From Gemmatimonadota bacterium (GTDB lineage: Bacteria > Gemmatimonadota > Gemmatimonadetes > Palauibacterales > Palauibacteraceae), in the NCBI GenBank assembly GCA_046758745.1, contig JBHIAV010000002.1, forward strand, positions 32,001 through 96,000: DNA of 64,000 nucleotides, read 5' to 3'. The notes under the pieces are model-generated. The model was not told the DNA's origin. It made no database searches and worked only from the letters and a program-made list of their open reading frames with translations. Both the position numbers and the translations under genes were made by a program. This document shows positions 14,805 to 34,458 of the stretch, one piece after another; position 1 is the first letter of the stretch, and each line of letters starts with the position of its first letter.

Positions 14805-16502
14805 TCAGGGTGTGGGCGCGTCCGGCTCTGGCGTCCGCCAGCGCCCGTTCTGTTCCTCGGCCAGCGCGTGTTCAGGCTCGCACCGGCGTCGGTACACCGT
14901 GAACGCGCCGACCACGCTCAGGCGGTCGTAGGATTGGAAGATCTCGGCGAAGCGTGTGTCCTGCGAAAAATACTCGACGTAGTCGAACGCAGTCGCGCCC
15001 AGACGTGATTTGGTCCGTGCCGACTCGACGATGAGCAGCGCGGGTCGTTCCCGCAGAAGGTCCTCGACCACCACGTTCACCAGCCAGCGCTCCAGCTCCG
15101 GCCGCTCATGCGGCGGATGGTAAGGGAAGGGCGACGCCCTCGGCTCTACGTCGGCATACAGCCCGGGCAGGGGCCAGAGCTGCAGGAAGCGAGATCCCCA
15201 CCTCACGCCCGTCTGGCTGACCAGGGGGAAGCCGACGGGCGCGGCCGAAAGGGCCACCACCGCCTCGTCGGCCGAGGCGTTTTCGCGCACCAGGCGGGCC
15301 AGCGCGGGGAACGACCCGCGTGCCTCCGGATGCCGTGCCGCCGTCGCCCCGGAGAGCACCAGGATTCCCACCATGCCGAGGACGGCCATGAAGGAGCCAA
15401 CCGCGCCGATGGCGCTGAGGTGCTGGCCGGACGGCTCCTCGTGCGCTCGGCCACGTCCCACACGCACCGCGCCCTCGGCCCCCGCCCAGACCGTCACCCC
15501 CGCCAGCACCGAGGCGGCGGCGAGCGGCGGGTACAGCTGGTAGGTCCACCCCTTCCCCTGAAGAAACGCCGCCACGGTGAAGCCGGCCGTGGCGAGCGCG
15601 AGGACCCATGAGAGTTCGCGATAGGGTGGAGCCGGCCGCAGCAGCGAGAAAAGCGCGAGCGACGCGCCGGCCCAGATGAGCTGCGGGGATCGCACGAGGT
15701 CTTCCATGGCGACGTCGAAAGCCCCGTACACCTGGACAACCGCGGCCGCCATGTCGAGGTACCGGGGACTCACCAGAAGGACGACGAGCCCGTACCCCGC
15801 GATCACCGCGTAGGCGATGGCGCTCTCCGGCCGCGTCGTTCGCGACCGGTCGGGAGAAGCGCGGTCTGGCCGCCGCCGGACCAGTGCCGCATAGCCGTCG
15901 CCAGCGAGAAGCGGCACCAGGAAATGCGGCTTGAGGGCGAAGCCGAGCCCGCCCGCCACGCCGATCGCTGCGGCCGCCAGCCGGGGCAACGTCGCCCCGC
16001 TCGCCCGTAGCGCCGTGGCGAGGAAGTAGGGCGTCACCAGCATCAGCATCAGGTGTTCCCGCTGTCCGAACGCTCCGCGCGAGAGGGGGAGGAAGACGAA
16101 CGCGACGAGCAGCAAAAGGTACGTCACGGTCGGCCGCCCGCCGTCGCGGCAGAGCCAGCGGACAGCGGCGAGCGAGCCGAGGGCGAGCGCGGCGACGAGC
16201 AGATTGAAGAACACGAAATGCGAGATCCCCGTGAGCCGGCCGAGCAGGGCCGGCGTGAGGTTGAGCCAGACGATGAGCGGGGGGTTCGTGTCGAAGAGGT
16301 CGACATAGAGCCGCGCGCCGTCGAGGACCCGCTCCGCCGAGTACAGGTACCAGGCGACGTCGGGGAGGGGTGCGTCACGGAAGGCCCGAAACAGCCCGGC
16401 GGCGACCACCGCGCCGACGAGAAGCCACCCGGCCGGTCCGCGCAGGGGCCGGAACCTGAGGTCGTGGAGAGCGCGAGCCAGCCCTCGCTTGGAGAGCCTC
16501 AC
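14805..16502 (-). CDS. Polytopic membrane protein, GT-C glycosyltransferase-like
   Basis: About 11 TM segments; first loop DVAWYLYSAERVLDGARLYVDLFDTNPPL; GQREH and LKPHF motifs; soluble C-terminal domain. Confidence 0.55.
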   Translation of the reverse strand: MRLSKRGLARALHDLRFRPLRGPAGWLLVGAVVAAGLFRAFRDAPLPDVAWYLYSAERVLDGARLYVDLFDTNPPLIVWLNLTPALLGRLTGISHFVFFNLLVAALALGSLAAVRWLCRDGGRPTVTYLLLLVAFVFLPLSRGAFGQREHLMLMLVTPYFLATALRASGATLPRLAAAAIGVAGGLGFALKPHFLVPLLAGDGYAALVRRRPDRASPDRSRTTRPESAIAYAVIAGYGLVVLLVSPRYLDMAAAVVQVYGAFDVAMEDLVRSPQLIWAGASLALFSLLRPAPPYRELSWVLALATAGFTVAAFLQGKGWTYQLYPPLAAASVLAGVTVWAGAEGAVRVGRGRAHEEPSGQHLSAIGAVGSFMAVLGMVGILVLSGATAARHPEARGSFPALARLVRENASADEAVVALSAAPVGFPLVSQTGVRWGSRFLQLWPLPGLYADVEPRASPFPYHPPHERPELERWLVNVVVEDLLRERPALLIVESARTKSRLGATAFDYVEYFSQDTRFAEIFQSYDRLSVVGAFTVYRRRCEPEHALAEEQNGRWRTPEPDAPTP

Positions 16503-16602
16503 CCCTTGCCCTCGCAGGGGCGCCGCTCCACCGCCCGGGCCGCGGCCCGCACGCGGCCGCCGCCGTTGACGGCCGCGCTCTGGCGCCCGAGGATCCGAGA
16601 AT

Positions 16603-17337
16603 ATGAGCGCATCGTACGATTCCTACGCCGTCGCGTGGTCGGGAGGCAAGGACTCCGCCCACGCGCTGCACCGGGCCCGGCGCGGCGGCTACCCCGTCAC
16701 CTGCCTGTTGAACCTTTACGACGGAGCATCCGGCCGCGTGCGCTTCCACGGCGTTCGGCAGGAGCTCATCGCGGCGCAAGCGCACGCTCTCGGCTGCAGT
16801 CTGCATCAGCGCGCCACAGGGAGAGACGATTTCGAGGCCGTCTTCCTCGCTGCCCTGGAGGAGCTCCGCGCCGCGGGGATGCGTGGGGTCGTCTTCGGCA
16901 ACATCCACCTGGCCGACGTGCGGGAGTGGTACGAGACGAGGACACGGAGGCTCGGCCTCGACCACGTAGAGCCGCTGTGGGGGGAAGACCCGGGCCGGCT
17001 GGCGCGCGAGGCCGTCGAAGCCGGCATCCGTGCCACGATCGTGAGCGTGGATCTGGCGCAGGCCGATGCCGCTTGGCTCGGATGCGGTCTTTCGGAGAAG
17101 CTCATCCGGGAGATGGAGGAGAGCACGGGAGCCGACCCGTGCGGCGAGCACGGAGAGTACCACACCTTTGTGCACGACGGTCCGGATTTCCGCTGGCCGC
17201 TTCGGCTGCGAGCGGGCGACATCTTCGAGGCCGAGAACCATCGCCTGCTCGACTTGATCCTCGACCCGGAGGCCCGATCGGCGGGGCCCGTCCCGGCCGC
17301 CCCCGTGGGTCGCAGGGCCGAGCCGCCGGCGAGGTAG
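16603..17337 (+). CDS. Dph6/MJ0570-family PP-loop ATP pyrophosphatase
   Basis: WSGGKDS, FGNIHL, EPLWG, DPCGEHGEYHTFVHDGP. Confidence 0.88.
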   Translation: MSASYDSYAVAWSGGKDSAHALHRARRGGYPVTCLLNLYDGASGRVRFHGVRQELIAAQAHALGCSLHQRATGRDDFEAVFLAALEELRAAGMRGVVFGNIHLADVREWYETRTRRLGLDHVEPLWGEDPGRLAREAVEAGIRATIVSVDLAQADAAWLGCGLSEKLIREMEESTGADPCGEHGEYHTFVHDGPDFRWPLRLRAGDIFEAENHRLLDLILDPEARSAGPVPAAPVGRRAEPPAR

Positions 17338-17411
17338 CCCGTCTGCACCCCGGGCCCATACCTTCGGACCGGTCCGTGAGTGAACGCAACGTAGAGAGGA
17401 GACCGCCGCCC

Positions 17412-18803
17412 GTGACCGACATCGCCGCCTATCTCGAGACGAACCGGGCACGCTTCGAAAGCGAGCTCGCCGATTTTCTTCGCATCCCGAGCGTCAGCAC
17501 CCTGACGAGTGCGAAGCCGGCCCTCCTCCGGTGCGCCGAGTACGTTGCGGCTCGGATCCGCGACGCCGGTGTCGACAAGGTCGAGGTCGTGCCCACCGAG
17601 GGGAACCCGATCGTCGTGGCGGAACAGATCGTCTCCTCCGACGCCCCGACGCTCCTCGTGTACGGCCACTACGACGTGCAGCCCTCGGATCCCGAGCACC
17701 TGTGGACCGCTCCGCCCTTCGAGCCCGAGGTGCGCGACGGCCGCATGTACGCGCGCGGCGCGATCGACGACAAGGGTCAGGTCCACATGCACATCAAGGC
17801 GCTGGAAGCTCGCCTAAAGAGCGGCGCTGGGCTCCCGGTGAACACGAAGCTCGTGATCGAAGGTGAGGAGGAGATCGGAAGCCGAAACCTCGAGGCGTTT
17901 CTCCACGCGCATTCGGACCGGCTCTCCTGCGACGCGGTGGTGATCAGTGACACGGGAATGCTGGCAGCGGACTGTCCCTCGATCGGCATGGGGCTGCGGG
18001 GCATCGCGTACCTCGAGGTGAGCTTCCGGGGACCCGCGACCGACCTTCACTCCGGGTCGTACGGCGGGGCGGTCGTGAATCCCGCCAATGCCCTCGCCGC
18101 CACGATCGCCCGTCTCAAGGACGAGCGCGGGCGGGTGACGATCCCGGGCTTCTACGACCGAGTGCGACCGATCACGGAGGAGGAAAGGGAGCAGCTGCGC
18201 GCGCTTCCCTTCGACGATGAGCAGTTCCGCACGGAGGTCGGCGCCCCGGCCCTGGGCGGCGAGGCCGGCTACTCGACCCTCGAGCGCCTGTGGTATCGTC
18301 CCACGCTGGACGTGAACGGGATGCTCAGCGGGTGGACAGGCGAGGGATCGAAGACCGTGCTGCCCTCCAAGGCCACGGCGAAGATCTCCATGCGGCTCGT
18401 GCCTGACCAGGATCCCACCGACATCGCGGAGCGGTTCCGGGCGCACATCGAAGCCCTCGCGCCAGCCGGAGTCGAGGTGGAGGTGAAGAGCTCGCACGGA
18501 GGAGAGCCGTGGGCCGCCGATCCGCAGCACCCGATCTTCGACGCCGCCGCGGCCGCCCTGGAGGCTGCCTTCGGGAAGAAGCCGGTCTACATCCGAGAGG
18601 GCGGTTCGATCCCGATCGTCCCGATGTTCGAGCGCACCTTCGACGCACCGGTTCTCCTGCTCGGCTTCGCCCTCCCGGGATGCAACGCGCACGCGCCCGA
18701 CGAGTGGATCGACCTCCGGATGTACGCGCGGGGAATCGAGACGATCGCCCAGCTCTACGACGAGGTGGCCGCCCGCAGGCTCAGGGAGACAGCGCGGGCG
18801 TGA
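17412..18803 (+). CDS. M20-family dipeptidase
   Basis: FLRIPSVS, YGHYDVQP, ARGAIDDKGQ, EGEEEIGS, DLHSG, GGSIP, HAPDE. Confidence 0.93.
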   Translation: MTDIAAYLETNRARFESELADFLRIPSVSTLTSAKPALLRCAEYVAARIRDAGVDKVEVVPTEGNPIVVAEQIVSSDAPTLLVYGHYDVQPSDPEHLWTAPPFEPEVRDGRMYARGAIDDKGQVHMHIKALEARLKSGAGLPVNTKLVIEGEEEIGSRNLEAFLHAHSDRLSCDAVVISDTGMLAADCPSIGMGLRGIAYLEVSFRGPATDLHSGSYGGAVVNPANALAATIARLKDERGRVTIPGFYDRVRPITEEEREQLRALPFDDEQFRTEVGAPALGGEAGYSTLERLWYRPTLDVNGMLSGWTGEGSKTVLPSKATAKISMRLVPDQDPTDIAERFRAHIEALAPAGVEVEVKSSHGGEPWAADPQHPIFDAAAAALEAAFGKKPVYIREGGSIPIVPMFERTFDAPVLLLGFALPGCNAHAPDEWIDLRMYARGIETIAQLYDEVAARRLRETARA

Positions 18804-18909: not shown

Positions 18910-19905
18910 TCATTTCGGTCGTCGTAGCAGCTCGACGCGAAGGTCGTAGGCGGCCGTCAGGAAGGGACGGCTCCGGTCTCCGCTCTCGACCCACCCGATC
19001 ACCGCTCCCTGCACAACCTGCTGCGGCGTGAAGCCGGAAGGTGTGGTGCGAATCCCGACAAATCGGCTGCCGGCTTCCAGCGTCCCCACGCCGGCGACGT
19101 CATAGGCGGCGTATCGCAGCCCTGCGGAGTCGCGCCGCGCCAACCAGAGCAGCTCCTCCTCCGGGTCGCTCAGGATAGCCTGCACAGGCAGGTCGGCGTC
19201 CCGTAGCGCCAGGCGCCGGCCCTCTCTCATGGCTGCGACCTCGAAGACGGTGTCCGGCACGTCGGCGGACCAGAGCCACATGCCGGCTCCTGAGGGGGCG
19301 AGCCGAGTCTCTCCCTGAGCTACGTCGAGGGCCCGGATGGGCTGGGGGCCCGTGCGGGGTCCGAGAAGGGTGTCCCGCGTGCTGCCCTGCAGATCCGTCC
19401 TCAGCAGAAGAAGCGTGGGCTGCTCGCCTTCCGAGGCCATCGCGTACACCAGACTGAAGGGACGGCGCGCGAGGGCCATGGTGATCGGCTCGAAACCGAG
19501 GGGAAAGCCGCGGATGTGCTGGCCGGCCGGCGTGTAGTGGTCCACCATACCGGTTGCGCGATCGTACACGAATACGCCGAGATCGGGCGCCACGGCCAGG
19601 CGATACGGGTCCACGAGCTCCACCGGCTCCGCATCCAGGTAGCCGAACATCTCGAAGTCGCCAGCCGGCGTGTTGAGGCGCATCACGACCTTCGTCACCG
19701 CCTCCGCCAACCAGACGACCTCGCGCGTGCTGGCCTTCATGTCGGCTGGATTCATGATGGGAACGGAGGACGGGGGCTGCGTCCACAGGCCGAGAGCCGG
19801 AAGCGCAGCCGTGGGATCATCGATTGACTCGCTGCACGAGAGGACGAGGAAGCCCATCAGGGTCGCCAGGAGGCTCTTGTGTGTCAGTCCTTTTCTCGCG
19901 AGCAT
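18910..19905 (-). CDS. Hypothetical lipoprotein (possibly beta-propeller)
   Basis: Lipobox VLSC; NHL-like segment PYRLAVAPDLGVFVYD...DHYTPAGQHIRGF. Confidence 0.55.
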   Translation of the reverse strand: MLARKGLTHKSLLATLMGFLVLSCSESIDDPTAALPALGLWTQPPSSVPIMNPADMKASTREVVWLAEAVTKVVMRLNTPAGDFEMFGYLDAEPVELVDPYRLAVAPDLGVFVYDRATGMVDHYTPAGQHIRGFPLGFEPITMALARRPFSLVYAMASEGEQPTLLLLRTDLQGSTRDTLLGPRTGPQPIRALDVAQGETRLAPSGAGMWLWSADVPDTVFEVAAMREGRRLALRDADLPVQAILSDPEEELLWLARRDSAGLRYAAYDVAGVGTLEAGSRFVGIRTTPSGFTPQQVVQGAVIGWVESGDRSRPFLTAAYDLRVELLRRPK

Positions 19906-20239
19906 CTTTCTCTCTCGCAGCCGCTGGGCCGCCGCCTCGGGTAGACCCGGGGAACGCGTTCGACCCTTGCTCCCGGCCGCGGGCTTGGCGGGCGCGCCGG
20001 GCCCGTTCCGCTGCTGCCGCGGCCGATGATAGCCCGTTCGGGAGCGGAGTCAATCGGCCGCCCGGCGGTTCACTTCACCGGATGAGAGCCGCGCGGGTGA
20101 GCGGCGGGACCGGCCGCGCTGCGCGGCGGCTGGCCGAGCAGCAAGACTGATGATAGACGGTTGATCGCCCTCCCGGATGGTGAGGGCAGTGGAGAGGGGG
20201 ATGCGGGTCGGGCGGCGAGGCTTCGCACCGGAAACGCTT

Positions 20240-23200
20240 ATGTACCATCTCCAGAGCTTCGGCGGCGTCGCTCTCACCGGTGGAGATGGCTCCAGCATCC
20301 GACTGCGCTCCCGGAAACACCTCGCGCTACTCCTCTTCCTGGTCGCGAACGGACGACGGGTGCACACGCGCCGCGAGCTCGCCTCGCTCCTGTGGGACAC
20401 TCCCCCCGGACGAGCGCGCCATTCGCTCAGCCAAGCGGTCTATGACCTGCGCTGCCGGCTCGACGGGATCATCCTTGGGTTCCCCGGGGAGGAGGTCCAG
20501 CTCGATTCAGGCCGAATCCGCTACGACGTCGACGAGCTTGAGCGAGCGGTCAAGGAGGGCAACCTCGGTCGAGCCGTTGAGTTGTACCGCGGCCCGTTTG
20601 CCACCAACCTCGACACCACCGGTACGGATGACTTCGAGCGGTGGCTCGAGACCGAGCGAGTGCGCCTCCAGCGGCTCGTTCACCTCTCGCTGCGTCGGTA
20701 CGTGAAGGAGTGCGACGCCCACGCCAAGTGGGGGGAGATGTGCGTGGCCGCTCTCAAGCTGGCCGACATGGATCCGCTGGACGAGGAGGCGCACCGTGCC
20801 CTAATGCGGGGCTTGTGGTTACATGGCGATCGCACCTCGGCCCTGCGCCACTACGAGGAGATCTCCGCCTTTCTGACAAGTGAGCTCCCCGGGGGGATCT
20901 CCAGCGAGACGCGGCAACTGGCCGAGCGGATCCGCCACGAGCCGGCCGAGGGGGCGACCATCGCTACGTCTGCCGCCGAGAACCGGCCGCCCCTCGTCGG
21001 CCGTGGGCAGGAATTCGAGTTCCTCAAGGACGCAGTTAGGGAGCTTCGCCGTGGTCGGGCGGGGACAGTGGTCGTGCAAGGTGAACCGGGGATCGGAAAG
21101 AGCAGGTTGATCCAGGAGTTCGTCCGCTCGGCATGCCTTGAGCCGATCCGCGTGCTTGAAAGCCGCTGCTACGCCGCTGAGAAGGACGTGCCGTACGGCC
21201 CGGTGGTCGATGGCCTGCGTCCGATCGCAGAACAGATGGCACGTACTCTCCCGAACGACGGCTGTCAATACACCCGGCTCGGTCACCTCTTCCAAGAGTT
21301 TGCGTCCTTCATGCAGCCGGAGATCGAGCACGGCGTCGATCCGAATGCCTGGCGCCGTCGACTGTACGAGGAGGTGGCCGATTTGGTGCGGAACGCCTCG
21401 GAGTGGGCACCAATCTTGTGGGTAGTGGAGGACATGCACTGGATGGATGCCACCTCCCGATCCTTACTCCACTACCTGTCACGGAGGTTGGCGGAGCGTC
21501 CCTTCATGCTGGTCATGACAGAGCGCGTCGGCAAGACGCATGTCGCTGTTCGTGCGCAACGGCGCAGACCGCCTCGTCCTGGGGAAACGATGGACCTCGT
21601 GCTGCCGCCGCTCACCGATTCCGAGATCGGGCAGCTCGTCGCCGAGGCTCTGCCCGAGGCGAAAGAGCACCCGGCGGTCGAGCTCGCACAGAAGCTGGCA
21701 GGGGGAAACCCGTTCTACGCGCTCGAGGTATTCCGGGCCGCATTCGCGTCGGCGGAGTGGATCGCCGAGGCCGACACCTGGGATCCCCTCACTGACGCAA
21801 GGTTGAGCGATGTCTTCGACATTCGCTTCCGGAACCTTCCGGACGGATCCCTTAGAATCCTGCGAGCCGTGTCCGTACTCGACCGCCACGCTACCCCCCG
21901 GCATGTCGCGGCCTTGGCCTCCCTGTCGCTGCAAGGAGCTGCCGACGTTTCCACCGAGCTGTACGAGCGCGGTCTTCTGGTTGACGGAGATTCCGAACTG
22001 GATTTCGTCAACGACATTGTGCGGGAGTACGTGTACAAGAGAATGAGCTCCATGCAGCGAGCAGCCCTGCACCTCGCTGCCGCGCAACAGCTCGATGGCG
22101 AGCCAGGAATCGGTGCGGCCACATTGGCCAGACATTACCATCTGGGCGACGACAAGCCGAATACCTTCAAGTGTGGGATGCAAGCCGCGACCGAGGCGAG
22201 CTCGTCGGGTGGCCATCTCGAGGCTGCCTCGATGGCCACTCTCGCTCTGGCTGCAGCGGGCGAGCGGGACGAGACCCTCAGGGCTTTGCGAATCCTGGCG
22301 AGCGCCGAGCTCCTATCAGCACAACTGAAATCGGCGCAGGAGCACTACTCTCGGATTCTCGACCTCGACACCGAGATGTCGCTCGAGGCGAGAATCGAGA
22401 CGAAGCTACACATCGTAGAGACGATGGCGGAACTGTCAGAGTGGGACGGAGGGCGGGAGTTGCTGAGCAGTCTCGCGGATGAGATTGAGAACATCCCTGA
22501 ACCTACGGTACAACTTCGAACCCGTGCGGAGACACTTTTCTGGAGCCTCAAGATTGCAATGCGCCAGAACGACTGTGAAGCCGCACGTGCAATTGCCTTG
22601 TCTGCACGTCGGCTCCGGGACACGGCAGTCACTGAGGGAACAGTCACCCCTGTTGCCGATGTCTCAGCGCTTTGCTGTGTAGCAGCCTACACCGCTTTCT
22701 TTGAAAACGCAGAAGATGCGCTTCAGCTCATTCAACTAGCTGAGAGGCGGATTGGGCTGATACCGGACTACTTGATCGAGAGGGTCCGACTCTTCAGTGG
22801 GATGGTCCGGCTACGGATGGCCCTATGGGATGAGGGGGAGCAGGATATCCTGGCGGCGATCGATCTGGCACGTAAACGTAAGGATCTAGTGCAGCTCAGT
22901 ACCCTATGGAACAACTTGGCTTGCTGCGCTCTCGAACAAGGCGACTGGGATCGTTTCGAAAAGACTGCATCTATGGCAGAATCTATTCAAGAGAAACTAC
23001 CAGTCCAGCTGGACGTTACGCTGCCATTGACGATCAATCGAGCTAACTCTCTCTTCTATCAGGGACATCCGCAGGCCGCAGGCAAGCTCTATAAGACCGC
23101 CCTCGATTCTGCGCTTGGCTTAGGATCTCGAGAGTTCGTACCTGAGCTGATGGCCTGCCGAGGACTGACCGCGCTACAGCTTGGCGATCGCGCAACAGCA

Positions 23201-23566
23201 GAAAAGATGTGGAACGGCGTCAAGGACTTGGACGCCGCGAAACTGGCAGGTGTCCAGGAACGGTTCAAGCTTGAATGGTTTCGGGGATATCACCTAAGGA
23301 ACGAAAGCTCCGCAGAGGCAGGTAGTCGGTTCTTCAAGGCTGCAGAAGAACAGGAGTTTCTCGACGTTCCAAGTTACTTGAAGATGCTGTGGCTCGGGTG
23401 CCTCTTGTTTCCGAAGTTGACTCGAGAGAGCCTGCGAGAAGCTGACCTGTTGGAACGTCTGAGGGCGGCGCGAATGTGGTGGTTCTCGAAGTTTGCCAAA
23501 CGTTGGCTCAGAGCAACGGACTACCACGCACGTCGCCTAAGCCGATTCCGCGGAGCGCGAAGCTAG
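20240..23566 (+). CDS. Large SARP-like transcriptional regulator: wHTH-BTAD, ATPase, TPR
   Basis: ELASLLW...ARHSLSQAVYDLR; DPLDEEAHRALMR (BTAD); LVGRGQE, Walker A GEPGIGKS, Walker B VVEDMHWMD, GGNPFY; helical TPR-like C-terminus. Start uncertain (20177, 20201 or 20240). Confidence 0.88.
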   Translation: MYHLQSFGGVALTGGDGSSIRLRSRKHLALLLFLVANGRRVHTRRELASLLWDTPPGRARHSLSQAVYDLRCRLDGIILGFPGEEVQLDSGRIRYDVDELERAVKEGNLGRAVELYRGPFATNLDTTGTDDFERWLETERVRLQRLVHLSLRRYVKECDAHAKWGEMCVAALKLADMDPLDEEAHRALMRGLWLHGDRTSALRHYEEISAFLTSELPGGISSETRQLAERIRHEPAEGATIATSAAENRPPLVGRGQEFEFLKDAVRELRRGRAGTVVVQGEPGIGKSRLIQEFVRSACLEPIRVLESRCYAAEKDVPYGPVVDGLRPIAEQMARTLPNDGCQYTRLGHLFQEFASFMQPEIEHGVDPNAWRRRLYEEVADLVRNASEWAPILWVVEDMHWMDATSRSLLHYLSRRLAERPFMLVMTERVGKTHVAVRAQRRRPPRPGETMDLVLPPLTDSEIGQLVAEALPEAKEHPAVELAQKLAGGNPFYALEVFRAAFASAEWIAEADTWDPLTDARLSDVFDIRFRNLPDGSLRILRAVSVLDRHATPRHVAALASLSLQGAADVSTELYERGLLVDGDSELDFVNDIVREYVYKRMSSMQRAALHLAAAQQLDGEPGIGAATLARHYHLGDDKPNTFKCGMQAATEASSSGGHLEAASMATLALAAAGERDETLRALRILASAELLSAQLKSAQEHYSRILDLDTEMSLEARIETKLHIVETMAELSEWDGGRELLSSLADEIENIPEPTVQLRTRAETLFWSLKIAMRQNDCEAARAIALSARRLRDTAVTEGTVTPVADVSALCCVAAYTAFFENAEDALQLIQLAERRIGLIPDYLIERVRLFSGMVRLRMALWDEGEQDILAAIDLARKRKDLVQLSTLWNNLACCALEQGDWDRFEKTASMAESIQEKLPVQLDVTLPLTINRANSLFYQGHPQAAGKLYKTALDSALGLGSREFVPELMACRGLTALQLGDRATAEKMWNGVKDLDAAKLAGVQERFKLEWFRGYHLRNESSAEAGSRFFKAAEEQEFLDVPSYLKMLWLGCLLFPKLTRESLREADLLERLRAARMWWFSKFAKRWLRATDYHARRLSRFRGARS

Positions 23567-24871
23567 ACCTCGCTTGGCAGCGAGGGACACTGGCTTGCTC
23601 GGGCCCACTAAGTCCTCAAGGATACCCGTCGCGACAACAACCGCCACGACCTTCGGGTCGAACTGCGTCCCACTGTGCTTCTGCAGTTCCTCGCGAACAA
23701 CCGTCACAGGAAGCGCCTCTCGATAGGGCCGTGCTGTGGTCATGGCGTCGATCGTATCGCAAACCATGATTATCCTTGCTCCGAGCGGTATTTCTTCCCT
23801 CGACAGTCCCGCAGGATAACCCTCCCCGTCGAAACGTTCGTGGTGGTGCCTTACACAGCGAAGTACCTCGCGGTGGATACTACGAATCGACTTGATGATG
23901 TCCACTCCCCGATCGGGGTGAGCGCGGATCAAATCTCGCTGTTCGGGCGTCAGAGGTCCTTTCTGTCGAAGGATCTCGCCATAGGCAACGTCGATCTTGC
24001 CGATATCGTGCAAAAGAGCGGCTGTTTCGATGATCTGTGCATATCGCGGCCTGAGTCTCAGCGCTCTGGCGATCCTGCTGGCTGCCTCCGCAACTCGGAT
24101 GGAATGACCCGACGTGTACGGATCCTGTGCTTCGATAGTCTTCACCATCAAGCGAAGCAGGTCTGTGTTCAACTGCTTCAGCTCGAAATTAATGCCATAG
24201 CTGTAGCGCAGGCCGATTAGCGGGATAATGGCCAGCAGCACGGCAATAGGTCCCCAGCGTGTGAAGGAAACGGCGACGAGATAGGCAAGAGGGCTCATGG
24301 CGATGTCAAAGATGATCAGACCGCCCGTAATATTTCTCCAAGCCTCGCGGTACGTGTGCCCTTCTGTAAGCGACACAACGTATGCGACGGTACCCGTGTT
24401 GACGGCGAAATAGGCTAGTACGGCCATGAGAAAGGGGGGAAACGTCTGACGAAAGTCGATGCTTTCCAGACTCTCGACGCCCCCAAACCACCTAAAAACC
24501 AGACTTGCCGCAGAGACAGCGAGGACGAGCTGGGCGGTATTGAACAGCTTCTTATAAAAAATCTTGTCGCGATAAAGAAGGAATTCCGAGAAAACCTCCG
24601 AGATGAGGGTGACTGTTACGGCACCGGAGGGTCCCAGGAGCAGAACGGCGCCCAGTTCAGGTATGAAGTCCATGGACGTGGTTGAGCCACTCTCTGAGAA
24701 CTTCAAGTATAGCATCATGCTGACGATGCTTAGCGCTAGGAGAGTTGCGAAAGCAACCACAAGATTGCTGGAAGAGGGGAGGGGGTAGCGCCAGAAAATA
24801 AAAGCTGCTGAGAACGCTGCCAGCGTCGCGGCGGCGTAGACTACAACGCGCAGGCGAGTGTCGATGGTCAT
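23537..24871 (-). CDS. Membrane-bound HD-GYP cyclic dinucleotide phosphodiesterase
   Basis: About 6-7 N-terminal TM helices; DPYTSGHS, LHDIGK, HHHERFDGEGYP, DAMTTARPYR all intact. Confidence 0.93.
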   Translation of the reverse strand: MTIDTRLRVVVYAAATLAAFSAAFIFWRYPLPSSSNLVVAFATLLALSIVSMMLYLKFSESGSTTSMDFIPELGAVLLLGPSGAVTVTLISEVFSEFLLYRDKIFYKKLFNTAQLVLAVSAASLVFRWFGGVESLESIDFRQTFPPFLMAVLAYFAVNTGTVAYVVSLTEGHTYREAWRNITGGLIIFDIAMSPLAYLVAVSFTRWGPIAVLLAIIPLIGLRYSYGINFELKQLNTDLLRLMVKTIEAQDPYTSGHSIRVAEAASRIARALRLRPRYAQIIETAALLHDIGKIDVAYGEILRQKGPLTPEQRDLIRAHPDRGVDIIKSIRSIHREVLRCVRHHHERFDGEGYPAGLSREEIPLGARIIMVCDTIDAMTTARPYREALPVTVVREELQKHSGTQFDPKVVAVVVATGILEDLVGPSKPVSLAAKRGLASRSAESA

Positions 24872-24897
24872 CTACTGAGGACCCCCAACCCCTGCTA

Positions 24898-24993
24898 TTA
24901 CCACCTGACCGTTCCACCCCAGCGGACCGTTCCACCCCAGCGGACCGTTCCGCCGAACAACCTGGCAAGCCAGTTGGTGCTGATCAGTAGCAT
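24898..24993 (-). CDS. Unannotated 31-aa peptide MLLISTNWLARLFGGTVRWGGTVRWGGTVRW (putative signalling-peptide precursor)
   Basis: SD AAAGGAGGTG at 25010-25001, 7 nt before the ATG; tandem stops TAA TAG; three 18-bp repeats that differ only at synonymous sites. Confidence 0.85.
   Translation of the reverse strand: MLLISTNWLARLFGGTVRWGGTVRWGGTVRW
24901..24954 (-). repeat. 3 x 18 bp coding repeat (GGTVRW)
   Basis: GGCGGAACGGTCCGCTGG / GGTGGAACGGTCCGCTGG / GGTGGAACGGTCAGGTGG on the minus strand. Confidence 0.95.
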
Positions 24994-25246
24994 CGAAGCT
25001 CACCTCCTTTCGAGTTGAAGACATACCCGTTCGCTACAGGGTATGCTTCGTCTCCGCTCGGAGGTCGCTCCGCTCAGCTCTCGGTGGCGAGCCGCAGAGA
25101 TTGGGGGTTCCTCTGGCTATCGCATCCCGGTCTATAGGTTTATCTGCGGCGCCAAAACGACTAAGCGCGCTGGGCCGCAAGGCTTCCCACAGTCGACCCA
25201 AGAAAGAAAAGCAATTGCAGGCCGCAACGCAACTGGGCGCCGGGGA

Positions 25247-25948
25247 TTACTTGTTCGCTATCCAGCGGTTGGTGGCGTGAAGGCAGGCCAGAACAGCCGC
25301 CTCCTCTGGCGAGTCCTGCACTCTGCCGATCCCGGCCAGGCAGACCGTGGTACGTCTGGCGTGGTCGTGAACGACAACCGCGAGCAGGCGACGTCCCAAA
25401 GCGTCGATCTGACTCACCCCCTCCAAAGAAAGGGAGGTCTTGTCCCCCGTGGCCTTCTGGATCGCCTGCAGAACAGCGTCGCAGGCGACCTCGAGGCGAG
25501 ACTTCGCGTAGTCGGGACCCTCGGCCTCTCCGACGTACTCGGTGTCGCCAGAGCGCAGCTGCACCCGGCAGGAGACCTGCTGACCCGTCTTGCGCTCGAT
25601 GTGGAATCCGTCTAGGAGGAAGCGTCTGGCGCCAGCCTGCGTCTCGGCCTCGGCCTCGGCCTCCGAGACCACGGGGATCTCGGGTCCCTTCAGCCTCGCG
25701 ACAGAGATCTTGCGGTGGTCTATCTGGAGGCCGAACTCCGCGAGGAGGGCCGATTCGATGTTGCGGACGATCTGTTTCGCCGAGAGGTCAGCGACGCTGA
25801 GCACGTGAATCTCATCGATGCCGCCATGCCCATCGGGCACGATCTTCAGGGAGCTCACCCCATCGAGACCCACCAGCAGCTTTTCGATCCGGCGCAAGCC
25901 CCAGGGATCCACGCCCCTTGCCGCCGGCTCTCCGGCCTCTCGGCTCAT
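25247..25948 (-). CDS. Hypothetical protein (EIHVL...KQIVRNIESAL...IDHRKIS; C-terminal part reminiscent of the LeuA allosteric domain)
   Basis: ATG at 25948 overlaps the DGC stop (ATGA). Natural globular composition in two domains joined by an EAEAEAE linker. Confidence 0.75.
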   Translation of the reverse strand: MSREAGEPAARGVDPWGLRRIEKLLVGLDGVSSLKIVPDGHGGIDEIHVLSVADLSAKQIVRNIESALLAEFGLQIDHRKISVARLKGPEIPVVSEAEAEAETQAGARRFLLDGFHIERKTGQQVSCRVQLRSGDTEYVGEAEGPDYAKSRLEVACDAVLQAIQKATGDKTSLSLEGVSQIDALGRRLLAVVVHDHARRTTVCLAGIGRVQDSPEEAAVLACLHATNRWIANK

Positions 25949-27675
25949 CGAACGAGCTTCCCTCCGATCGCGGGGTGTACAGTGTTGCCTCCGTGCGCCT
26001 TGGCAACATAGAGAGAGGCATCCGCCTCCGCCATCAGGGCCTCGCTCGTCAGAACGGACCGCGCCGCCCCTGAATGATAAGCGAGACCAATGCTTAGCGT
26101 AACCCCCGCCTCTCCCTGTGGCGTATGAACCCGGAAGGTCTCTGCCTGAGATCGAATCTCCTCGGCCACCCGCGCGGCGCCCTCGGGGTCGGCGTTTACG
26201 AGGATAAGAACGAACTCGTCGCCTCCGAAGCGACACGCGATGTCGGTGGCCCGGATGGCTCCTCTCAGGATATCGGCGACACCCCGCAGGATGTCGTTGC
26301 CGGCTGCGTGACCGAGCCGATCGTTGATCGGCTTGAAGTCATCCAGGTCGATGAACAAGACGGCGAGGGAGGTACCGCTCCGATTGGCGCGTGCCACCTC
26401 CTGAGCCAAGCGTTCCTCGAGTACCCGATACGTGAAGAGTCCGGTGAGGGCGTCATGCATGGCGTCGCGTGACGCCTGCTCGACCTGACGTCCCAGGTAG
26501 TAAGGGCAGATCGATAGGGTGGCCCGTCCTCGGGAGATGGCATCGGCGAAGTCGACGCACCTCGCGTGGCCGCAGGCCCCGCAATCCCAGTACGCACCGC
26601 CGGGAGCCCTTCCGATTCGCTCGAGCACGCGAGCCGCTTGCGCGGAGTCGGCCGGTGGAAGCGCCGCGGCATTCGGCTCGAAGGAGGCGCTGAGATCCAG
26701 AGCCGGCGGAACATCGACTACGGGCTCCCCGGAACGCCCGCCTTCCGCGAGCTCGGCGATCGCTTTGCGCCAGAAAAGGTCCTCATGCCGCCCGAAGGCG
26801 GGATGATCGAGGCTGCCCTCGAACGGTAGGACGTCGAGGAAGCCGAGTTCGCGTTCGCTGCTGACCACCGCTTGGGCGACGGCGCTCAGGGCGTGCAGGC
26901 CCCGGATCTTGCTGAACCGCCGCGATGAGAGGGACTCCTCCTCAAGCATGGCCAGCGGAAGCCCACCCGCGGTGGAGAGGTGACGGCGCCGCTCCGGCGG
27001 GATGCGCTCGAGCGTGAGGGGCTGCCTCTCCGGGTCCGCGCCCTTGTGGATCAAGAGATCCTTCAGCTCCTCGAAGGAGATGCATGCGCTGATACCCTGT
27101 TCGTCGCGGTCCGGCCCTGGAGTCGCCAGACCAGCGTAGATGATCCTGTATTCTGGCCCGTAATGGGTGCGAAGAAACCGACCGAGGGCAACGGCAGGCG
27201 TGACGATGGGCGCCAGGAAGGGCAGCAGGGCGGGGAGCCTGACTCGGCAGTAGTCGACCACGATGGAGCTGGTGGAGCGGATCCACGTCCTGGGGGAATC
27301 TTCCCGCCACAGGCGCAGATACTCGTGCGCCACCAGCTCATCGCCCAAGGTCTCAAAGTATACGCCGTGAAAGCCCGCCCGGAAGCAGGCGTTGATGATC
27401 TGCTCTGGCGTGGCCGGGTGGAAACTGACGGCCACTTCGGCCGGTAAGATGAGGATCGCCCGGTCCTTCTCGATGGCTTCCCGCACCTCCCGGATGTCAC
27501 CGACGACGTCGATAGCATCGTGGTGGCAGGCCGGAACGCAAAGGCCGCACTCGATGCACGTCTCCCCGACGATCCGCACCTCGTTCCCCGAAACGGCGAT
27601 CGCCTCGACGGGACAGACGCGGACGCAGGCCATGCACGCCGTGCAGTTGTCGTTGACCGAGAAGCTAAGGTTCAC
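25945..27675 (-). CDS. Diguanylate cyclase with 2[4Fe-4S] ferredoxin, degenerate [FeFe]-hydrogenase-like and FeS domains
   Basis: CTACMACVRVCP and CIECGLCVPAC; DCGACGHARC...CPYY; DLDDFKPINDRLGHAAGN; RATD I-site followed by RFGGDEF; ADASLYVAK. Confidence 0.9.
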   Translation of the reverse strand: MNLSFSVNDNCTACMACVRVCPVEAIAVSGNEVRIVGETCIECGLCVPACHHDAIDVVGDIREVREAIEKDRAILILPAEVAVSFHPATPEQIINACFRAGFHGVYFETLGDELVAHEYLRLWREDSPRTWIRSTSSIVVDYCRVRLPALLPFLAPIVTPAVALGRFLRTHYGPEYRIIYAGLATPGPDRDEQGISACISFEELKDLLIHKGADPERQPLTLERIPPERRRHLSTAGGLPLAMLEEESLSSRRFSKIRGLHALSAVAQAVVSSERELGFLDVLPFEGSLDHPAFGRHEDLFWRKAIAELAEGGRSGEPVVDVPPALDLSASFEPNAAALPPADSAQAARVLERIGRAPGGAYWDCGACGHARCVDFADAISRGRATLSICPYYLGRQVEQASRDAMHDALTGLFTYRVLEERLAQEVARANRSGTSLAVLFIDLDDFKPINDRLGHAAGNDILRGVADILRGAIRATDIACRFGGDEFVLILVNADPEGAARVAEEIRSQAETFRVHTPQGEAGVTLSIGLAYHSGAARSVLTSEALMAEADASLYVAKAHGGNTVHPAIGGKLVR

Positions 27676-27817
27676 GACTGCGTCCGCTCGGTGCGTGTAT
27701 CATGAAACGGCCCCGATCATGGCGGGTCCGAGGGCCTCTCCGGTGACCGGCGAGGGGTACAAGAAACATACCCGGGCCCAGGTCCCGTGGGAAGCGCGGA
27801 TCGGTCGTCGGGGTAGG

Positions 27818-27858
27818 AGTGTAACCACTGTAACGTGTTACTACAACGTACATTACGT
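27818..27858 (-). promoter_or_regulatory. Putative sigma70 promoter of the DGC operon with overlapping inverted repeats
   Basis: Minus strand TTGTAG (27846-27841), 17-nt spacer, TACACT (27823-27818). Palindromes GTAAC-gt-GTTAC (27830-27841) and ACGTA-cat-TACGT (27846-27858). Confidence 0.55.
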
Positions 27859-28107
27859 CCGTGTGGAAATCGTCGTCTGCTATTCCGGCAGACACGTCCG
27901 TGGAGCGGGTGGCCGACCTGTGGCGTCTGGACAACGGGACTCTGTGTCTCCCGAAGAGCGCCTTTCGCACCGAACCGGGCCCCTGAACCGGCCCCTGGGG
28001 GGCCCCTGGCACTCGCCCTCTCACGGGGCGGCGTGTAAGATGTGCACGGCAGAGGCGGCCGGTGCTAGCGCGCGGAGCGGTCGACGAACCTATCGGGATC
28101 AAGGGAG

Positions 28108-28407
28108 ATGGGTGGGTCTGCACTTCTCAAGAAACTGCTGTGGCGCCTCGACGGTGCCGCCGACAGCGCCAAGGTCGAATTCATCAGCGAGGCCGGCAAC
28201 CGATGGGAGGCTGAGTTGTCGCTTCACTCCGGTACCGATCCCCAGTCCCCCCGCCTCATGATACTGTTCCGGAACCGGTCCGCCCCGCACACATCGCAGC
28301 GCTACAATCTCGCGCCGATCGGGGTGTCCAAGGTCCCCCGTGAGGCGGCGAAACAGCTCAGTGAGGCGGAGCTTCGGGAGCTCCTCGCAACCTCCGTGGA
28401 GCTGTAG
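28108..28407 (+). CDS. Small hypothetical protein
   Basis: SD AGGGAG, natural composition, operon with tdk; ends [16 protein letters not shown]. Confidence 0.7.
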   Translation: MGGSALLKKLLWRLDGAADSAKVEFISEAGNRWEAELSLHSGTDPQSPRLMILFRNRSAPHTSQRYNLAPIGVSKVPREAAKQLSEAELRELLATSVEL

Positions 28408-28415
28408 GAAGCCCG

Positions 28416-28652
28416 GTGGCCCGGACGATCTACGATGACGGCCTCCTCAAGTGGGAGGTGTACGTCAGCGGCGGGCAGCCGAACTCGAAGGTGGCCGCCC
28501 GAATCTTCTTTCTCTGCCTCGACGCTCCGATGACGCCCGCCCGCTGTGTGCTACGGGAAGACGGCGACGTCGCCGCCGCCCAGCGAGCCATCATGGAAAT
28601 GAGCGACGATGATCTCAGAGAGCTGCTCGCAACGAGCGTCGAAGTCGGCTGA
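28416..28652 (+). CDS. Small hypothetical protein, probable paralogue of the upstream gene
   Basis: Ends [17 protein letters not shown]; tight spacing with both neighbours. Confidence 0.7.
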
Positions 28653-28657
28653 CGAGC

Positions 28658-29281
28658 ATGCCAGGGGACGGCCGCGAAGGCTGGATCGAGGTCATCACGG
28701 GCGTGATGTTCAGCGGAAAGTCCGAGGAGCTCCTCCGTCGAGTCCGCCGCGCCCTCATTGCGCGAAAGACCGTCCAGGTCTTCAAGTCCCATCTAGACGA
28801 CCGATACAGCGGAATCCAGACGATCAGCTCGCACGATGGGCGGACGATCGAAGCCGTGCCGACTTCCCACTCCCGCGACGTGGCGGAGCGAGTGAGTGAC
28901 GATACGCAGGTCGTCGCCATCGACGAGGTCCAGTTCCTCGACCCCGGCATCGTGACGGTCGTGAACAAGCTGGCGGACGAGGGAAGACGGGTAATCGTCT
29001 CTGGAACGGACATGGATTTCCGGGGGCTTCCCTTTGGGCCGGTCGGCGATCTGCTTGCCGTGGCCGAGCGGATCGACAAGCTGCACGCCATCTGCGTCGT
29101 GTGCGGGGAGCTCGCGACTCGCAACCAGCGCCTGATCGACGGGCGGCCCGCACCCGCCGAGGGGCCGACGATCCAGGTCGGGGGCGCGGAGTCGTACGAG
29201 GCCCGCTGTCGACGATGTCACGAGGTGCCGTCGGCCCTCGATGCTCAGATCCGACTCGTCGTGGAGGAGCAAGCTCCCTGA
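28658..29281 (+). CDS. tdk: Thymidine kinase
   Basis: [28 protein letters not shown], Zn motifs CVVCG and YEARCRRC. Confidence 0.97.
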
Positions 29282-29302
29282 GACGTCCGGGACGACGGTC
29301 CA

Positions 29303-30460
29303 CTACAGCGGGAAAGCGTGCACCGCCGTCGCCTTGATGGAGATGAAGACCCTGGTCCCGGGAGCGAGCCCGAGTTCCCTGCCGGCGGCTCGCGTGACCA
29401 CGGCGATCACTTCCGGCGGACCGTCCATCCGGACTCGCAGCAGGCCCCCGGCCTCGCGTACGTCGGCGACTACAGCGGCGAAGCGGTTTCGCGCGCTGCT
29501 CAGTCGAGCCGGCTGCTTCGACAAGAGGAGATCCTCTGGCCGGTAGGCGAGCTTCACGGCCGCTCCGCGGGTGGCGTTCCCGATCGCCCGGATCAGGACT
29601 CCGTCCACATCCACCTGCAACAGGCCGCCCTCTTCTCCCGCTACCGTACCCCGCAGCGACAGCTCGGCGCCCGTGGTCTCGGCGATGAAGGGATCGCGTG
29701 GGTCTTCGAAAAGCTCAGCCGGGGTGCCGACCTGGACAACCCGCCCCTCGCGGAGCACCGTCACCCGGTCGGCCAGATAGAACGCCTCGTTTCGATCGTG
29801 CGTCGCGAGGAGTGTGGCACGCCCCCGGCTTCGTGCAGCTCGCTCCAGATCCTCGCGCAGGAGGAGGCGAACCTCGGCGTCCAGGTTGGCCGTCGGCTCG
29901 TCGAGGAAGAGGACGTCGGGGTCGAGCGCGAGGGCCCGGGCGATCGCCACGCGCTGCATCTCGCCACCGGAGAGCGACCGGGCGTCGGCGTCGAGGAGAT
30001 GCTCGATGCCGAGCTGCCGCGCCGCTTCCTCGGCGCACATCCTCCGCTCGGCCGCCCTGGTGCGCCCGAGCCGAAGGCCGAGCTCCACGTTCCAGCCCAC
30101 GGACCCCGCCCACACATGCGGCCTCTGAAAGACGGCGGCGGAGGAGCGCCGGAGCGCCGCCTCGGCTCCGGCACCTGCCTCGCCCCGATAGCGCACGCTC
30201 CCCGACGCCGGGGACTCCAGCATCGCCAGGACCCGAAGGAGAGTCGATTTCCCGGCTCCGTTCGGTCCCAGCACGGCTAGGATCTCCCCCTCTCTCAGCC
30301 CGATCCGCTCGATGGCGAGCACCGGCCGGTCGCCGTAGCGCACCTCGATTCCCTCGCCCACGATGACCTCGTTCCAGGCGTCGTGGCGCGCGCGCGCGGA
30401 CGTCTCGCCGCGCAGTCGGCTGTAGAGCCGCGAAGGGTCGGCGGTGCGTGCGTCGGCCAT
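29303..30460 (-). CDS. tupC: Tungstate ABC transporter ATPase with TOBE domain
   Basis: GPNGAGKST, LSGGEMQRVAIARAL, LDEPT, C-terminal TOBE (IKATAVH). Confidence 0.8.
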   Translation of the reverse strand: MADARTADPSRLYSRLRGETSARARHDAWNEVIVGEGIEVRYGDRPVLAIERIGLREGEILAVLGPNGAGKSTLLRVLAMLESPASGSVRYRGEAGAGAEAALRRSSAAVFQRPHVWAGSVGWNVELGLRLGRTRAAERRMCAEEAARQLGIEHLLDADARSLSGGEMQRVAIARALALDPDVLFLDEPTANLDAEVRLLLREDLERAARSRGRATLLATHDRNEAFYLADRVTVLREGRVVQVGTPAELFEDPRDPFIAETTGAELSLRGTVAGEEGGLLQVDVDGVLIRAIGNATRGAAVKLAYRPEDLLLSKQPARLSSARNRFAAVVADVREAGGLLRVRMDGPPEVIAVVTRAAGRELGLAPGTRVFISIKATAVHAFPL

Positions 30461-34200: not shown

Positions 34201-34458
34201 GCCGGCATGATCAGCCGCGGACGGGGGCGCCGCAAGCCGACCCAAGCCCCCGCAGAGGCCGGAGCCGAAAAAAACCCGAAGATTGCTCCCATGCCCGGCG
34301 ACGAGGGCGGATTCGGGACCCGCGGCGTGGCTTCTGACCGGGCGGAAGTTGTGGTATATTACCCGCTCACCACCTCACACCTTGAGCCCGGAGGCCCGGC
34401 CGGAGGGCCACCGAGCCGCGGACTGTCTTGTCAGCCGCCATCTCCGGGAGGATCGAGC

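Follow-up and report, generated by a model that had tools for sequence, protein, structure and literature searches.

The 64,000 nucleotides analysed here (the window) are part of contig C2 (JBHIAV010000002.1, positions 32,001 to 96,000) of a metagenome-assembled genome (MAG) from the Gemmatimonadota family Palauibacteraceae, with a size of 3.07 Mb and a completeness of 87%. Four of the five genes considered (Table 1) are on the minus strand: an iron-sulphur (Fe-S) GGDEF cyclase, a hypothetical protein here called HYP, a micro-open reading frame (micro-ORF) whose peptide ends in a repeated GGTVRW hexapeptide, and a phosphodiesterase with a MASE9 membrane domain and an HD-GYP output domain. The fifth encodes a STAND-type regulator with tetratricopeptide repeats (TPR). 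All five are found where a first-pass annotation of this DNA had placed them, as are the overlap of the HYP ATG with the cyclase stop as ATGA, the 26 nt between the micro-ORF stop and the HD-GYP start and the 30 bp by which the convergent regulator overlaps the 3' end of the HD-GYP gene. The regulator ORF opens at 20177, and orthologue alignments start near residue 22, corresponding to 20240. That annotation regarded the locus as a redox-controlled system with a quorum-type peptide. Comparison with related loci shows that the micro-ORF is real and tied to the MASE9-HD-GYP gene, and that it is enclosed in a structured leader RNA, a feature beyond the earlier reading. The best explanation is that the micro-ORF, together with the surrounding RNA, is a leader module dedicated to the MASE9-HD-GYP gene.

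Table 1. Genes and leader elements of the locus (window positions)
Feature	Position	Strand	Basis
STAND-type regulator	20240..23566	+	Trans_reg_C, BTAD, AAA_16, TPR (Pfam)
MASE9-HD-GYP phosphodiesterase, 444 aa	23537..24871	-	Pfam matches
Closing helix P1, 3' arm	24877..24895	-	Minimum free energy (MFE) fold of the window; arms covary across clades
Micro-ORF, 31 codons + TAA	24898..24993	-	Conserved counterparts, dN < dS, motif statistics
Strong Shine-Dalgarno (SD) of the micro-ORF, AAGGAGGTG, 7 nt 5' of the ATG	25001..25009	-	Nearly invariant in alignments
Leader hairpin with conserved UAGCG loop	25017..25049	-	Compensatory changes
Conserved block GAGC(G/U)GAGCG ... CCUCC ... GAGCGGAG	25051..25080	-	Alignments, fold
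CCUCC, predicted partner of the micro-ORF SD	25060-25064	-	Energy prediction
Closing helix P1, 5' arm: C-run + AAUCUCUGCGG	25092..25113	-	Fold, covariation
Terminator-like hairpin, 12 nt past the HYP stop	25212..25235	-	Simple pattern scan, weak evidence
HYP, 233-aa protein	25247..25948	-	AlphaFold2 (AF2) model and fold matches; no family match
Fe-S / degenerate hydrogenase-like GGDEF cyclase, 576 aa	25945..27675	-	Pfam matches

Three samples of related loci were compared. In the first, 600 nt upstream of full-length HD-GYP orthologues (45-70% identity) from genomes of the same family were read, and a micro-ORF led by an SD was present in 16 of 17 loci with usable upstream DNA. The second was anchored on HYP: alignment of HYP gave 80 Gemmatimonadota loci, 51 of which had HYP and a downstream HD-GYP match, and a micro-ORF lies between the two genes in all 51. 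A strict rule (an ORF of 8-45 codons with a strong SD and Trp among the last two residues) recognises 45 of these, while five have a GGGGGTGA SD and one has Trp at the fourth-last position. The third sample was anchored on MASE9 by the Pfam model and comprised 30 loci from 121 genomes of the phylum and four from two further genomes. An HD-GYP match is present in 33 of these 34 loci and upstream DNA is available for 32 of the 33; all 32 have the micro-ORF (25 by the strict rule, two by a looser rule and five read by eye). The HYP- and MASE9-anchored samples overlap in part, with the window itself included. The tallies of the MASE9 search include the unpublished genome G114, and the leader-pattern tally given below also includes G150 and G211; the conclusions are independent of these genomes.

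The short SD-led ORFs that the first-pass annotation proposed to look for are present upstream of the HD-GYP gene in 51 of 51 and 32 of 32 loci. In the HYP-anchored loci Trp is found among the last two residues of 442 of 10498 small ORFs (4%), and of 15 of 232 SD-led ORFs, as a background. The micro-ORF follows the HD-GYP gene: in genome G010, where the HD-GYP gene has the opposite orientation to the HYP and GGDEF genes, the micro-ORF is still in front of it. Only one copy of the module is present in the genome from which the window comes. Chance does not account for the micro-ORF: its position, SD and C-terminal motif are kept in all related loci that could be read.

The peptides from the 51 HYP-anchored loci and the window, 52 in total and the basis of all composition statistics, are 14-35 residues long. 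Trp is the last residue in 26, the next-to-last in 25 and the fourth-last in one. The predicted Trp-terminal ending describes 51 of these 52 peptides; in the MASE9-anchored sample 27 peptides end in or next to Trp and five end in F, N, I or L (by eye). When the 52 are anchored on the last Trp, Gly is found at W-4 in 33 and L, I or V at W-2 in 36. The peptides lack proline, are near neutral, contain 8.5% Trp and have a mean grand average of hydropathy (GRAVY) of 1.06. The features that are kept are a hydrophobic, proline-free body and an end of the type G-x-[LIV]-x-W(-x); in the same family the N-terminal part is hydrophobic and the C-terminal end resembles G-(G/T/A)-T-(L/V)-(R/K)-W. The median length of the longest apolar run is 11 residues (range 6-19), and longer peptide forms of 22-27 residues could span a membrane. 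Among 15 closely related pairs, which are not independent of each other, 14 could be evaluated and all 14 have a lower nonsynonymous (dN) than synonymous (dS) divergence (for example 0 vs 0.42, 0.03 vs 0.80 and 0.04 vs 0.45). Judged by these codon comparisons the peptide sequence is under purifying selection. Six of eight peptides are absent from a collection of 15 billion proteins and the other two are there without a name. Pfam gave no match for the window peptide, and NCBIfam searches with eight peptides rendered a single weak match (E 0.11) far under the cut-off.

In the window the sequence GGAGGTG precedes the micro-ORF ATG by 7 nt. The window peptide consists of 13 N-terminal residues followed by three copies of GGTVRW, encoded by an 18-bp DNA repeat (TRF: 2.5 copies, 100% match). 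The C-terminal hexapeptide has been duplicated independently, with three copies in the window, two copies in two species of genus g20 and a duplication in one further MAG. Differences between the repeat units are all synonymous, both in the window (GGC/GGT, CGC/AGG) and in genus g20. The 18-bp repeat is also the break point of contigs from two other samples of the same study, which are uninformative on the number of repeats. One contig joins the edge of the repeat (24947-24976) to the 5' helix arm (25090-25110) on the opposite strand, most simply an assembly-graph effect of direct and inverted repeats.

Duplication of a C-terminal unit, here two- to three-fold in three lineages, is also a property of multi-copy pheromone precursors. 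The first-pass annotation proposed a quorum-type peptide input read by the HD-GYP membrane domain or the TPR regulator. On this model the peptide would be a secreted signal, comparable to SHP or XIP, that would perhaps be cut to TVRW or GGTVRW and be sensed by MASE9 from the outside or by the TPR regulator after re-import. The short hydrophobic peptides with a conserved C-terminal unit do resemble the small hydrophobic peptides of Rgg and ComR systems in form, and the linked regulator does have TPR repeats. Nevertheless, this explanation is very unlikely. No signal peptide or basic N-terminus was found in the peptides, and the nine neighbouring ORFs that were scanned hold no exporter, C39 peptidase, membrane protease or Opp permease; they include M1 and M20 peptidases, a thymidine kinase, a TOBE-domain ABC ATPase and a PBP-like protein. 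The regulator is a STAND protein with winged helix-turn-helix (wHTH), BTAD, AAA_16 and TPR parts and does not have the helix-turn-helix (HTH) plus TPR architecture of the RRNPP regulators that the first-pass annotation had cited for comparison. Compared with RRNPP, Rgg-SHP and ComR-XIP systems, the locus shares the short hydrophobic peptide, its conserved C-terminal part and the linked TPR regulator, but its peptide is encoded within another gene's leader, a cis-regulatory RNA that extends over the start region of HD-GYP, and genes for export, processing and import are missing among the nine neighbours. The host phylum is diderm, and such peptide pheromone systems are not known from diderm bacteria.

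The leader is approximately 240 nt long and is bounded by a covarying long-range helix that closes around the micro-ORF. The 5' side of this helix, a C-run plus 8-12 bases, is located approximately 95-120 nt upstream of the micro-ORF start. The 3' segment begins 0-4 nt past the micro-ORF stop in most loci and ends in a G-run; in the window it begins 2 nt past the stop, with the G-run 10 nt before the HD-GYP ATG, and in one clade it begins on the stop codon itself. The inner arm sequences vary by clade yet stay complementary, with at least six different arm sequences visible. Native arm pairs have a mean energy of -28.6 kcal/mol compared to -20.4 kcal/mol for arms combined across loci (46 loci), and an arm finds its own partner within the top five for 33 of the 46. 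Ungapped pairing of the arms is 0.70 compared to 0.50 after permutation (maximum 0.58 in 1000 permutations), although this test sometimes takes the wrong G-run, as in the window. Six of the 52 loci were left out of both tests because there is no C-run in the search window. These short-arm tests were used in place of a long-window duplex test, which over-extends the duplexes (median z -2.1).

Inside the closing helix, the hairpin with the UAGCG loop has compensatory changes in five of its nine pairs, and 97% of the cells are paired. For the whole counted structure in the family alignment 95.5% of the cells are paired, compared to 89.4% after shuffling (reached in none of 500 shuffles) and 41-56% in slid controls. 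The UAGCG loop motif also occurs in other families and in a paralogous module described below. The window leader (249 nt) has an MFE of -125 kcal/mol compared to -94 kcal/mol for shuffles (z -6.2), and the MFE structure includes both the closing helix and the pairing of the SD with the anti-SD. Rfam searches at E<=1 gave no matches in window positions 19000-29500, and only three microRNA rows, far under the gathering scores, in 20 further loci.

A two-part leader pattern was found in 110 of 201 genomes of the phylum, and the reversed-pattern control matches in a minority. At least 30 of the leader-pattern matches are located 250-450 nt upstream of a MASE9 match on the same strand (by eye). Two leader-pattern matches each were seen in G210 (C36, C99), G164 (C32, C63) and G128 (C23, C30). 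Sequence differences between the two copies in G210 point to genuine paralogous modules as in G177; the copies in G164 and G128 are identical and may be assembly duplicates.

The leader also holds two or three repeats of the type GAGCG(G/A)AGC (GAGCGGAGC-type) and, in the window's family, the CCUCC that is the predicted partner of the micro-ORF SD. Binding of CsrA to the GGA-containing repeats was considered and rejected, as no CsrA (PF02599) was found in the own genome (87% complete). On contig C45 of the same genome, at approximately 18100-18200, there are tandem units of approximately 45 nt behind a C-run, each starting with GAGCGGAGC and containing CCAGCGAACGC. No micro-ORF or HD-GYP gene was found near them, and they were rejected as a second leader because the repeat is different; they could represent a different repeat or RNA element.

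A long-range 5'-3' helix and a sequestered SD are also properties of hok-type mRNAs, and the peptide is small and hydrophobic as would be expected for a type I toxin. It is highly improbable that the micro-ORF is a selfish element of this kind, or an incidental upstream ORF (uORF) that is needed only for its translation. A toxin of this type would be expected in several copies or on mobile DNA, but the micro-ORF is single-copy in its own genome and keeps strict synteny with a single gene, both phylum-wide and in the paralogous module. The lower dN than dS in all evaluable pairs and the conserved C-terminal motif also speak against a sequence that is only translated and has no further role.

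The gene behind the leader encodes a protein with approximately seven hydrophobic segments in residues 7-225, and MASE9 (PF20972) is matched at residues 40-219 with 38.7 bits (cut-off 24.3). The output domain is a predicted HD-GYP phosphodiesterase (HD_5: 120.6 bits, E 7.5e-35) in which the HD and HHE..DG.GYP motifs are intact, together with Rxx(K/R) in its canonical form RPYR. The residues of the catalytic motifs are invariant in 12 orthologues, including R381-P-Y-R384. The Rxx(K/R) motif is presented in part of bioRxiv 10.1101/600031 as the guanine-reading motif of HD-GYP domains. In the available part of the paper describing MASE9 (Galperin and Chou, bioRxiv 10.1101/2021.11.05.467447) it is argued that the domain binds a ligand inside the membrane, and no ligand is known. 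The window enzyme is a member of the MASE9-HD-GYP proteins treated there, and the same part of that paper contains no mention of an upstream micro-ORF, a leader RNA, a HYP partner or Gemmatimonadota.

Because of the structured leader RNA, a cis-regulatory role is the best-supported part of any mechanism. The geometry of the predicted closing helix places the HD-GYP start region in a helix that can be opened by a ribosome on the leader ORF, and the only SD-like element before the HD-GYP start is the G-run of the 3' arm. The reading we favour, which we hold as tentative and as falling slightly short of an even chance, combines a translational gate coupled to the HD-GYP gene with a functional hydrophobic peptide acting on MASE9. 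The leader would control access to the micro-ORF SD and in this way gate translation of the micro-ORF, and the gate might respond to temperature, to a small ligand or to a protein, for example HYP, which is always adjacent. A ribosome ending the micro-ORF would melt the closing helix. Either the HD-GYP start region would then be exposed, or the ribosome would re-initiate downstream at the HD-GYP ATG, which mostly lies 21-43 nt past the micro-ORF stop. The enzyme would be produced only if the micro-ORF is translated, and the peptide, made beside and together with the enzyme, would enter the membrane and act as a partner or intramembrane ligand of MASE9. The STAND/TPR regulator, and the Fe-S cyclase or the sigma-54 activator found in particular clades, would be accessory inputs.

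Both halves of this combined reading have counterparts among known systems. In ermC/ermB, cat/cmlA, tnaC, secM-secA and mifM-yidC2 there is also a short, strongly initiated ORF directly upstream of the target gene, a conserved leader peptide, and a regulated start in a helix that is opened when a ribosome reaches the end of the leader ORF. The helix is long-range (approximately 200 nt) at the present locus, in contrast to those systems, and it brackets the whole ORF together with a structured 5' domain with an SD-sequestering element. Other differences are that the peptide is uniformly hydrophobic and Trp-ended, that the target is a second-messenger phosphodiesterase, and that a stall and an inducer are only hypothetical. 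The membrane half resembles MgrB-PhoQ, SafA-PhoQ, PmrR, AcrZ and KdpF, in which a hydrophobic product of less than 50 residues is encoded beside a membrane sensor or enzyme and is missed by annotation; an effect on the membrane domain is proposed here as well. The present peptides differ from MgrB-like modulators in that many have 14-17 residues, that their coding sequence is a coupled uORF within the leader RNA of the target itself, and that binding is a proposal. Complex prediction for MASE9 residues 1-235 and the 31-residue window peptide (score 0.02, mark 0.32) is evidence neither for nor against such binding.

Several observations weigh against the combined reading. The pairs between the SD and the anti-SD never vary, and that helix is predicted from folding energy. 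A second folded leader (L103, Gemmatimonadaceae) has a z of only -2.2, though the closing helix forms, and RNAalifold predicted no pairs from a phylum-wide MAFFT alignment of 52 sequences, which is too gappy; the firm structure of the leader is limited to the two counted helices. From the end of the G-run to the HD-GYP ATG there are mostly 7-17 nt, with a mode of 12, which is rather far for a classical SD. On the peptide side, family-level peptides of 14-17 residues are too short alone to form a normal transmembrane helix, and a C-terminal unit that is processed or read by a receptor would explain the hexapeptide duplications no less well than a membrane anchor would. A nascent-peptide mechanism would likewise be compatible with the constant distance from Trp to the stop. 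Expression, translation and binding are all predictions from sequence.

In such a nascent-peptide mechanism, of the kind found in TnaC, ErmCL and the arginine attenuator, the cis part would be shared with the combined reading, but the peptide would have no role after release. The G-x-[LIV]-x-W(-x) end would be read in the ribosome tunnel, and a stall at the stop, perhaps triggered by a small molecule, would hold the helix open and turn HD-GYP on. It is consistent with this that 51 of 52 peptides have Trp as the last or next-to-last residue although they vary in length and in the remainder, that the 3' arm of the helix lies so close behind the stop in most loci, and that duplication of the C-terminal unit leaves the same residues beside the stop. 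The entire peptide would also fit the exit tunnel. We regard the mechanism as unlikely all the same: five of the 32 MASE9-anchored peptides end without Trp (by eye), a sensor in the tunnel would not need the conserved hydrophobic, proline-free body, no known arrest motif is apparent, and no inducer can be named.

The order Fe-S GGDEF, HYP, leader with micro-ORF and HD-GYP with the convergent regulator is kept in 10 of 12 family-level loci, and regulator orthologues with 30-53% identity are found in 10 of the 12. Across the phylum the Fe-S cyclase is not retained along with HYP, HD-GYP and the regulator, which are, and the conserved synteny expected by the first-pass annotation accordingly applies to HYP and the TPR regulator and not to the cyclase, which is a clade-specific part. 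BTAD matches are present in 37 of the 51 phylum-wide loci with HYP and HD-GYP, mostly to the N-terminal part of the query; some contigs end before the regulator and one locus has the regulator on the other strand. In the two Gemmatimonadaceae loci examined, L071 (4251-5804, +) and L103 (4255-5793, +), the place of the cyclase directly upstream of HYP is taken by a sigma-54 activator consisting of Sigma54_activat and HTH_8, with 120 N-terminal residues without a domain match. A redox input through the cyclase, which the first-pass annotation had proposed, is for this reason not a general part of the module. A relaxed pattern for a sigma-54 promoter upstream of the leader or of HYP was found in only one of 50 loci.

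A second MASE9-HD-GYP gene in G177 is preceded by a HYP-like gene (25% identity over 212 residues, E 7e-11, BLASTP), a leader with GCGGAGC and UAGCG motifs and a Trp-ended micro-ORF. The conserved core of the module is HYP, the leader, the micro-ORF and MASE9-HD-GYP, usually with the convergent STAND/TPR regulator.

HYP has no Pfam or NCBIfam match, and a HYP profile gave no matches to PDB sequences at E<=1. Its family has 1823 Gemmatimonadota proteins at E<=1e-3 in a set clustered at 90% and 2707 representatives at the same threshold with 50% clustering. The relatives are named hypothetical except for one stray JGI label. HYP is a predicted cytoplasmic protein, and its AF2 model (pLDDT 90) has two domains. 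Residues 10-89, with a predicted ferredoxin-like alpha-beta-beta-alpha-beta fold, resemble the C-terminal regulatory domain of cation diffusion facilitator (CDF) metal transporters (Z 9.3, root mean square deviation (rmsd) 2.1, 68 of 73 residues aligned), and residues 108-231 resemble the allosteric domain of LeuA and citramalate synthase (VIA Z 10.5, rmsd 2.9, 110 of 115 aligned). The likeness is at the level of the fold; unlike those domains, HYP is without membership in a sequence family and is a stand-alone two-domain protein. Because both folds are small effector-binding or dimerising modules, HYP is likely a small-molecule-binding adaptor. Weaker leads to RNA binding, in the form of dsRBD-like Foldseek rows and a structural neighbour cluster containing Hfq, are no more than leads.

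The cyclase has a GGDEF domain (137.4 bits) with the GGDEF motif and the upstream RxxD site intact. Ahead of this domain are two 4Fe-4S ferredoxin motifs, the PF04060 Fe-S motif and a weak and partial Fe_hyd_lg_C match (36.7 bits, profile positions 22-171 of 245); among PDB sequences there was one weak match (7p5h_A, E 1e-05). Putative sensory [FeFe]-hydrogenase-like proteins of the HydS type also have ferredoxin-type clusters, an Fe_hyd_lg_C-like region and PF04060 ahead of the output, but in the present cyclase the hydrogenase match is partial, the H-cluster cysteine motifs look replaced by eye and the output is a GGDEF domain with Asn. This Asn stands in place of Asp at GHxxG(D) in the window cyclase and in all 30 orthologues with a match to the motif (34 examined), and the genome of the window has five further GGDEF motif matches, all with Asp. 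In work on PleD and Hypr-GGDEF the Asp of GHxxGD is the guanine-recognition position. The protein thus has the GGDEF motif but lacks the Asp of a canonical GTP-specific cyclase, and because of the Asn at the guanine-reading position its product may be something other than plain cyclic di-GMP (c-di-GMP).

The regulator has Pfam matches to BTAD (58.7 bits), AAA_16 (86.5) and TPR_2 (28.8), and to Trans_reg_C with 25.7 bits, just under the cut-off of 26.2. By its domain matches it is a SARP/AfsR-like STAND protein with the order wHTH-BTAD-AAA_16-TPR. TPR domains are known to bind peptides and serve as sensors in STAND proteins, and the peptide might act inside the cell, with its Trp-ended free C-terminus clamped by the TPR domain, as C-terminal peptides are by other TPR domains, to give feedback on transcription. 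A regulator convergent on HD-GYP is seen in 10 of 12 loci at family level and, at phylum level, in most of those whose contig extends that far, and the conserved part of the peptide is the C-terminal motif, which has been duplicated independently. We consider this quite unlikely, for the micro-ORF is tied physically and structurally to the start of HD-GYP and not to the regulator. In G010 (94% complete) one query found no full-length orthologue of the regulator, but the micro-ORF and HD-GYP are kept; the BTAD proteins found there have 610-784 aa and match regulator residues 1-320 at 31-35%. The TPR part also diverges strongly, and the BTAD matches at phylum level mostly cover the first approximately 700 residues.

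If the peptide, the leader, HYP and the cyclase are taken together, the combined reading can be extended. The micropeptide might be an intramembrane ligand or subunit of the MASE sensor, made in cis with the enzyme under the control of a riboswitch-like or protein-bound leader, with HYP as a possible RNA- or ligand-binding partner. The signal might be a cyclic dinucleotide, including a non-canonical one from the Asn-variant cyclase, and the whole would be a self-contained feedback circuit of RNA, peptide and enzyme for a second messenger, kept throughout the phylum. This extended form is doubtful, though possible.

Leader ORFs, helices that sequester ribosome-binding sites and small hydrophobic proteins are known kinds of elements; this combination, the RNA and the peptide family are so far undescribed. 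Searches in Rfam, Pfam, NCBIfam and PDB sequences gave no name for the RNA, the peptide or HYP. As the first-pass annotation had stated, no characterised system with this layout was found, which here refers to the literature at abstract level and to four family libraries. The locus appears to be a new module that controls a second-messenger enzyme, and it is not a demonstrated case of quorum sensing. Thousands of c-di-GMP enzymes and kinases begin with a MASE domain, and the signals of these domains are almost all unknown. A MASE9-HD-GYP is found here with three unannotated elements: a micro-ORF present throughout the phylum, a structured RNA and a two-domain protein family with approximately 2700 representatives. 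If borne out by experiments the module would provide one of three things: a ligand for a MASE domain, which would be the first, a leader-peptide switch of a new kind, or a new RNA that regulates the turnover of a second messenger. Given the conserved Asn in the linked cyclase, it is a separate question which cyclic dinucleotide the module handles in clades with the cyclase. The peptides are mostly absent from protein collections, and the locus illustrates the extent of what gene calling misses.

The terminator-like hairpin may separate HYP from the leader transcript; the pattern scan found 10 such sites compared to 3.3 expected. No sigma-70-like site was found by the promoter scan in the interval between HYP and the leader. 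No RNA sequencing runs are listed that cover window positions 23537-25948, a region covered by four DNA runs from one study.

On the side of the regulator a 916-aa ORF (16053-18803, +) has an M20 peptidase in its C-terminal half, and a 331-aa ORF (18910-19905, -) is without Pfam or NCBIfam match. Both are conserved neighbours in several family-level loci, and no link to the module was seen. Further away, a 465-aa ORF (33244-34641, +) has a MazE/AbrB-type antitoxin-like domain only at residues 416-449. The G+C content is 57-60% at window positions 22000-26000 compared to approximately 69% elsewhere; the dip spans the TPR half of the regulator, HD-GYP, the leader and HYP, and the locus is a conserved chromosomal one and no island.

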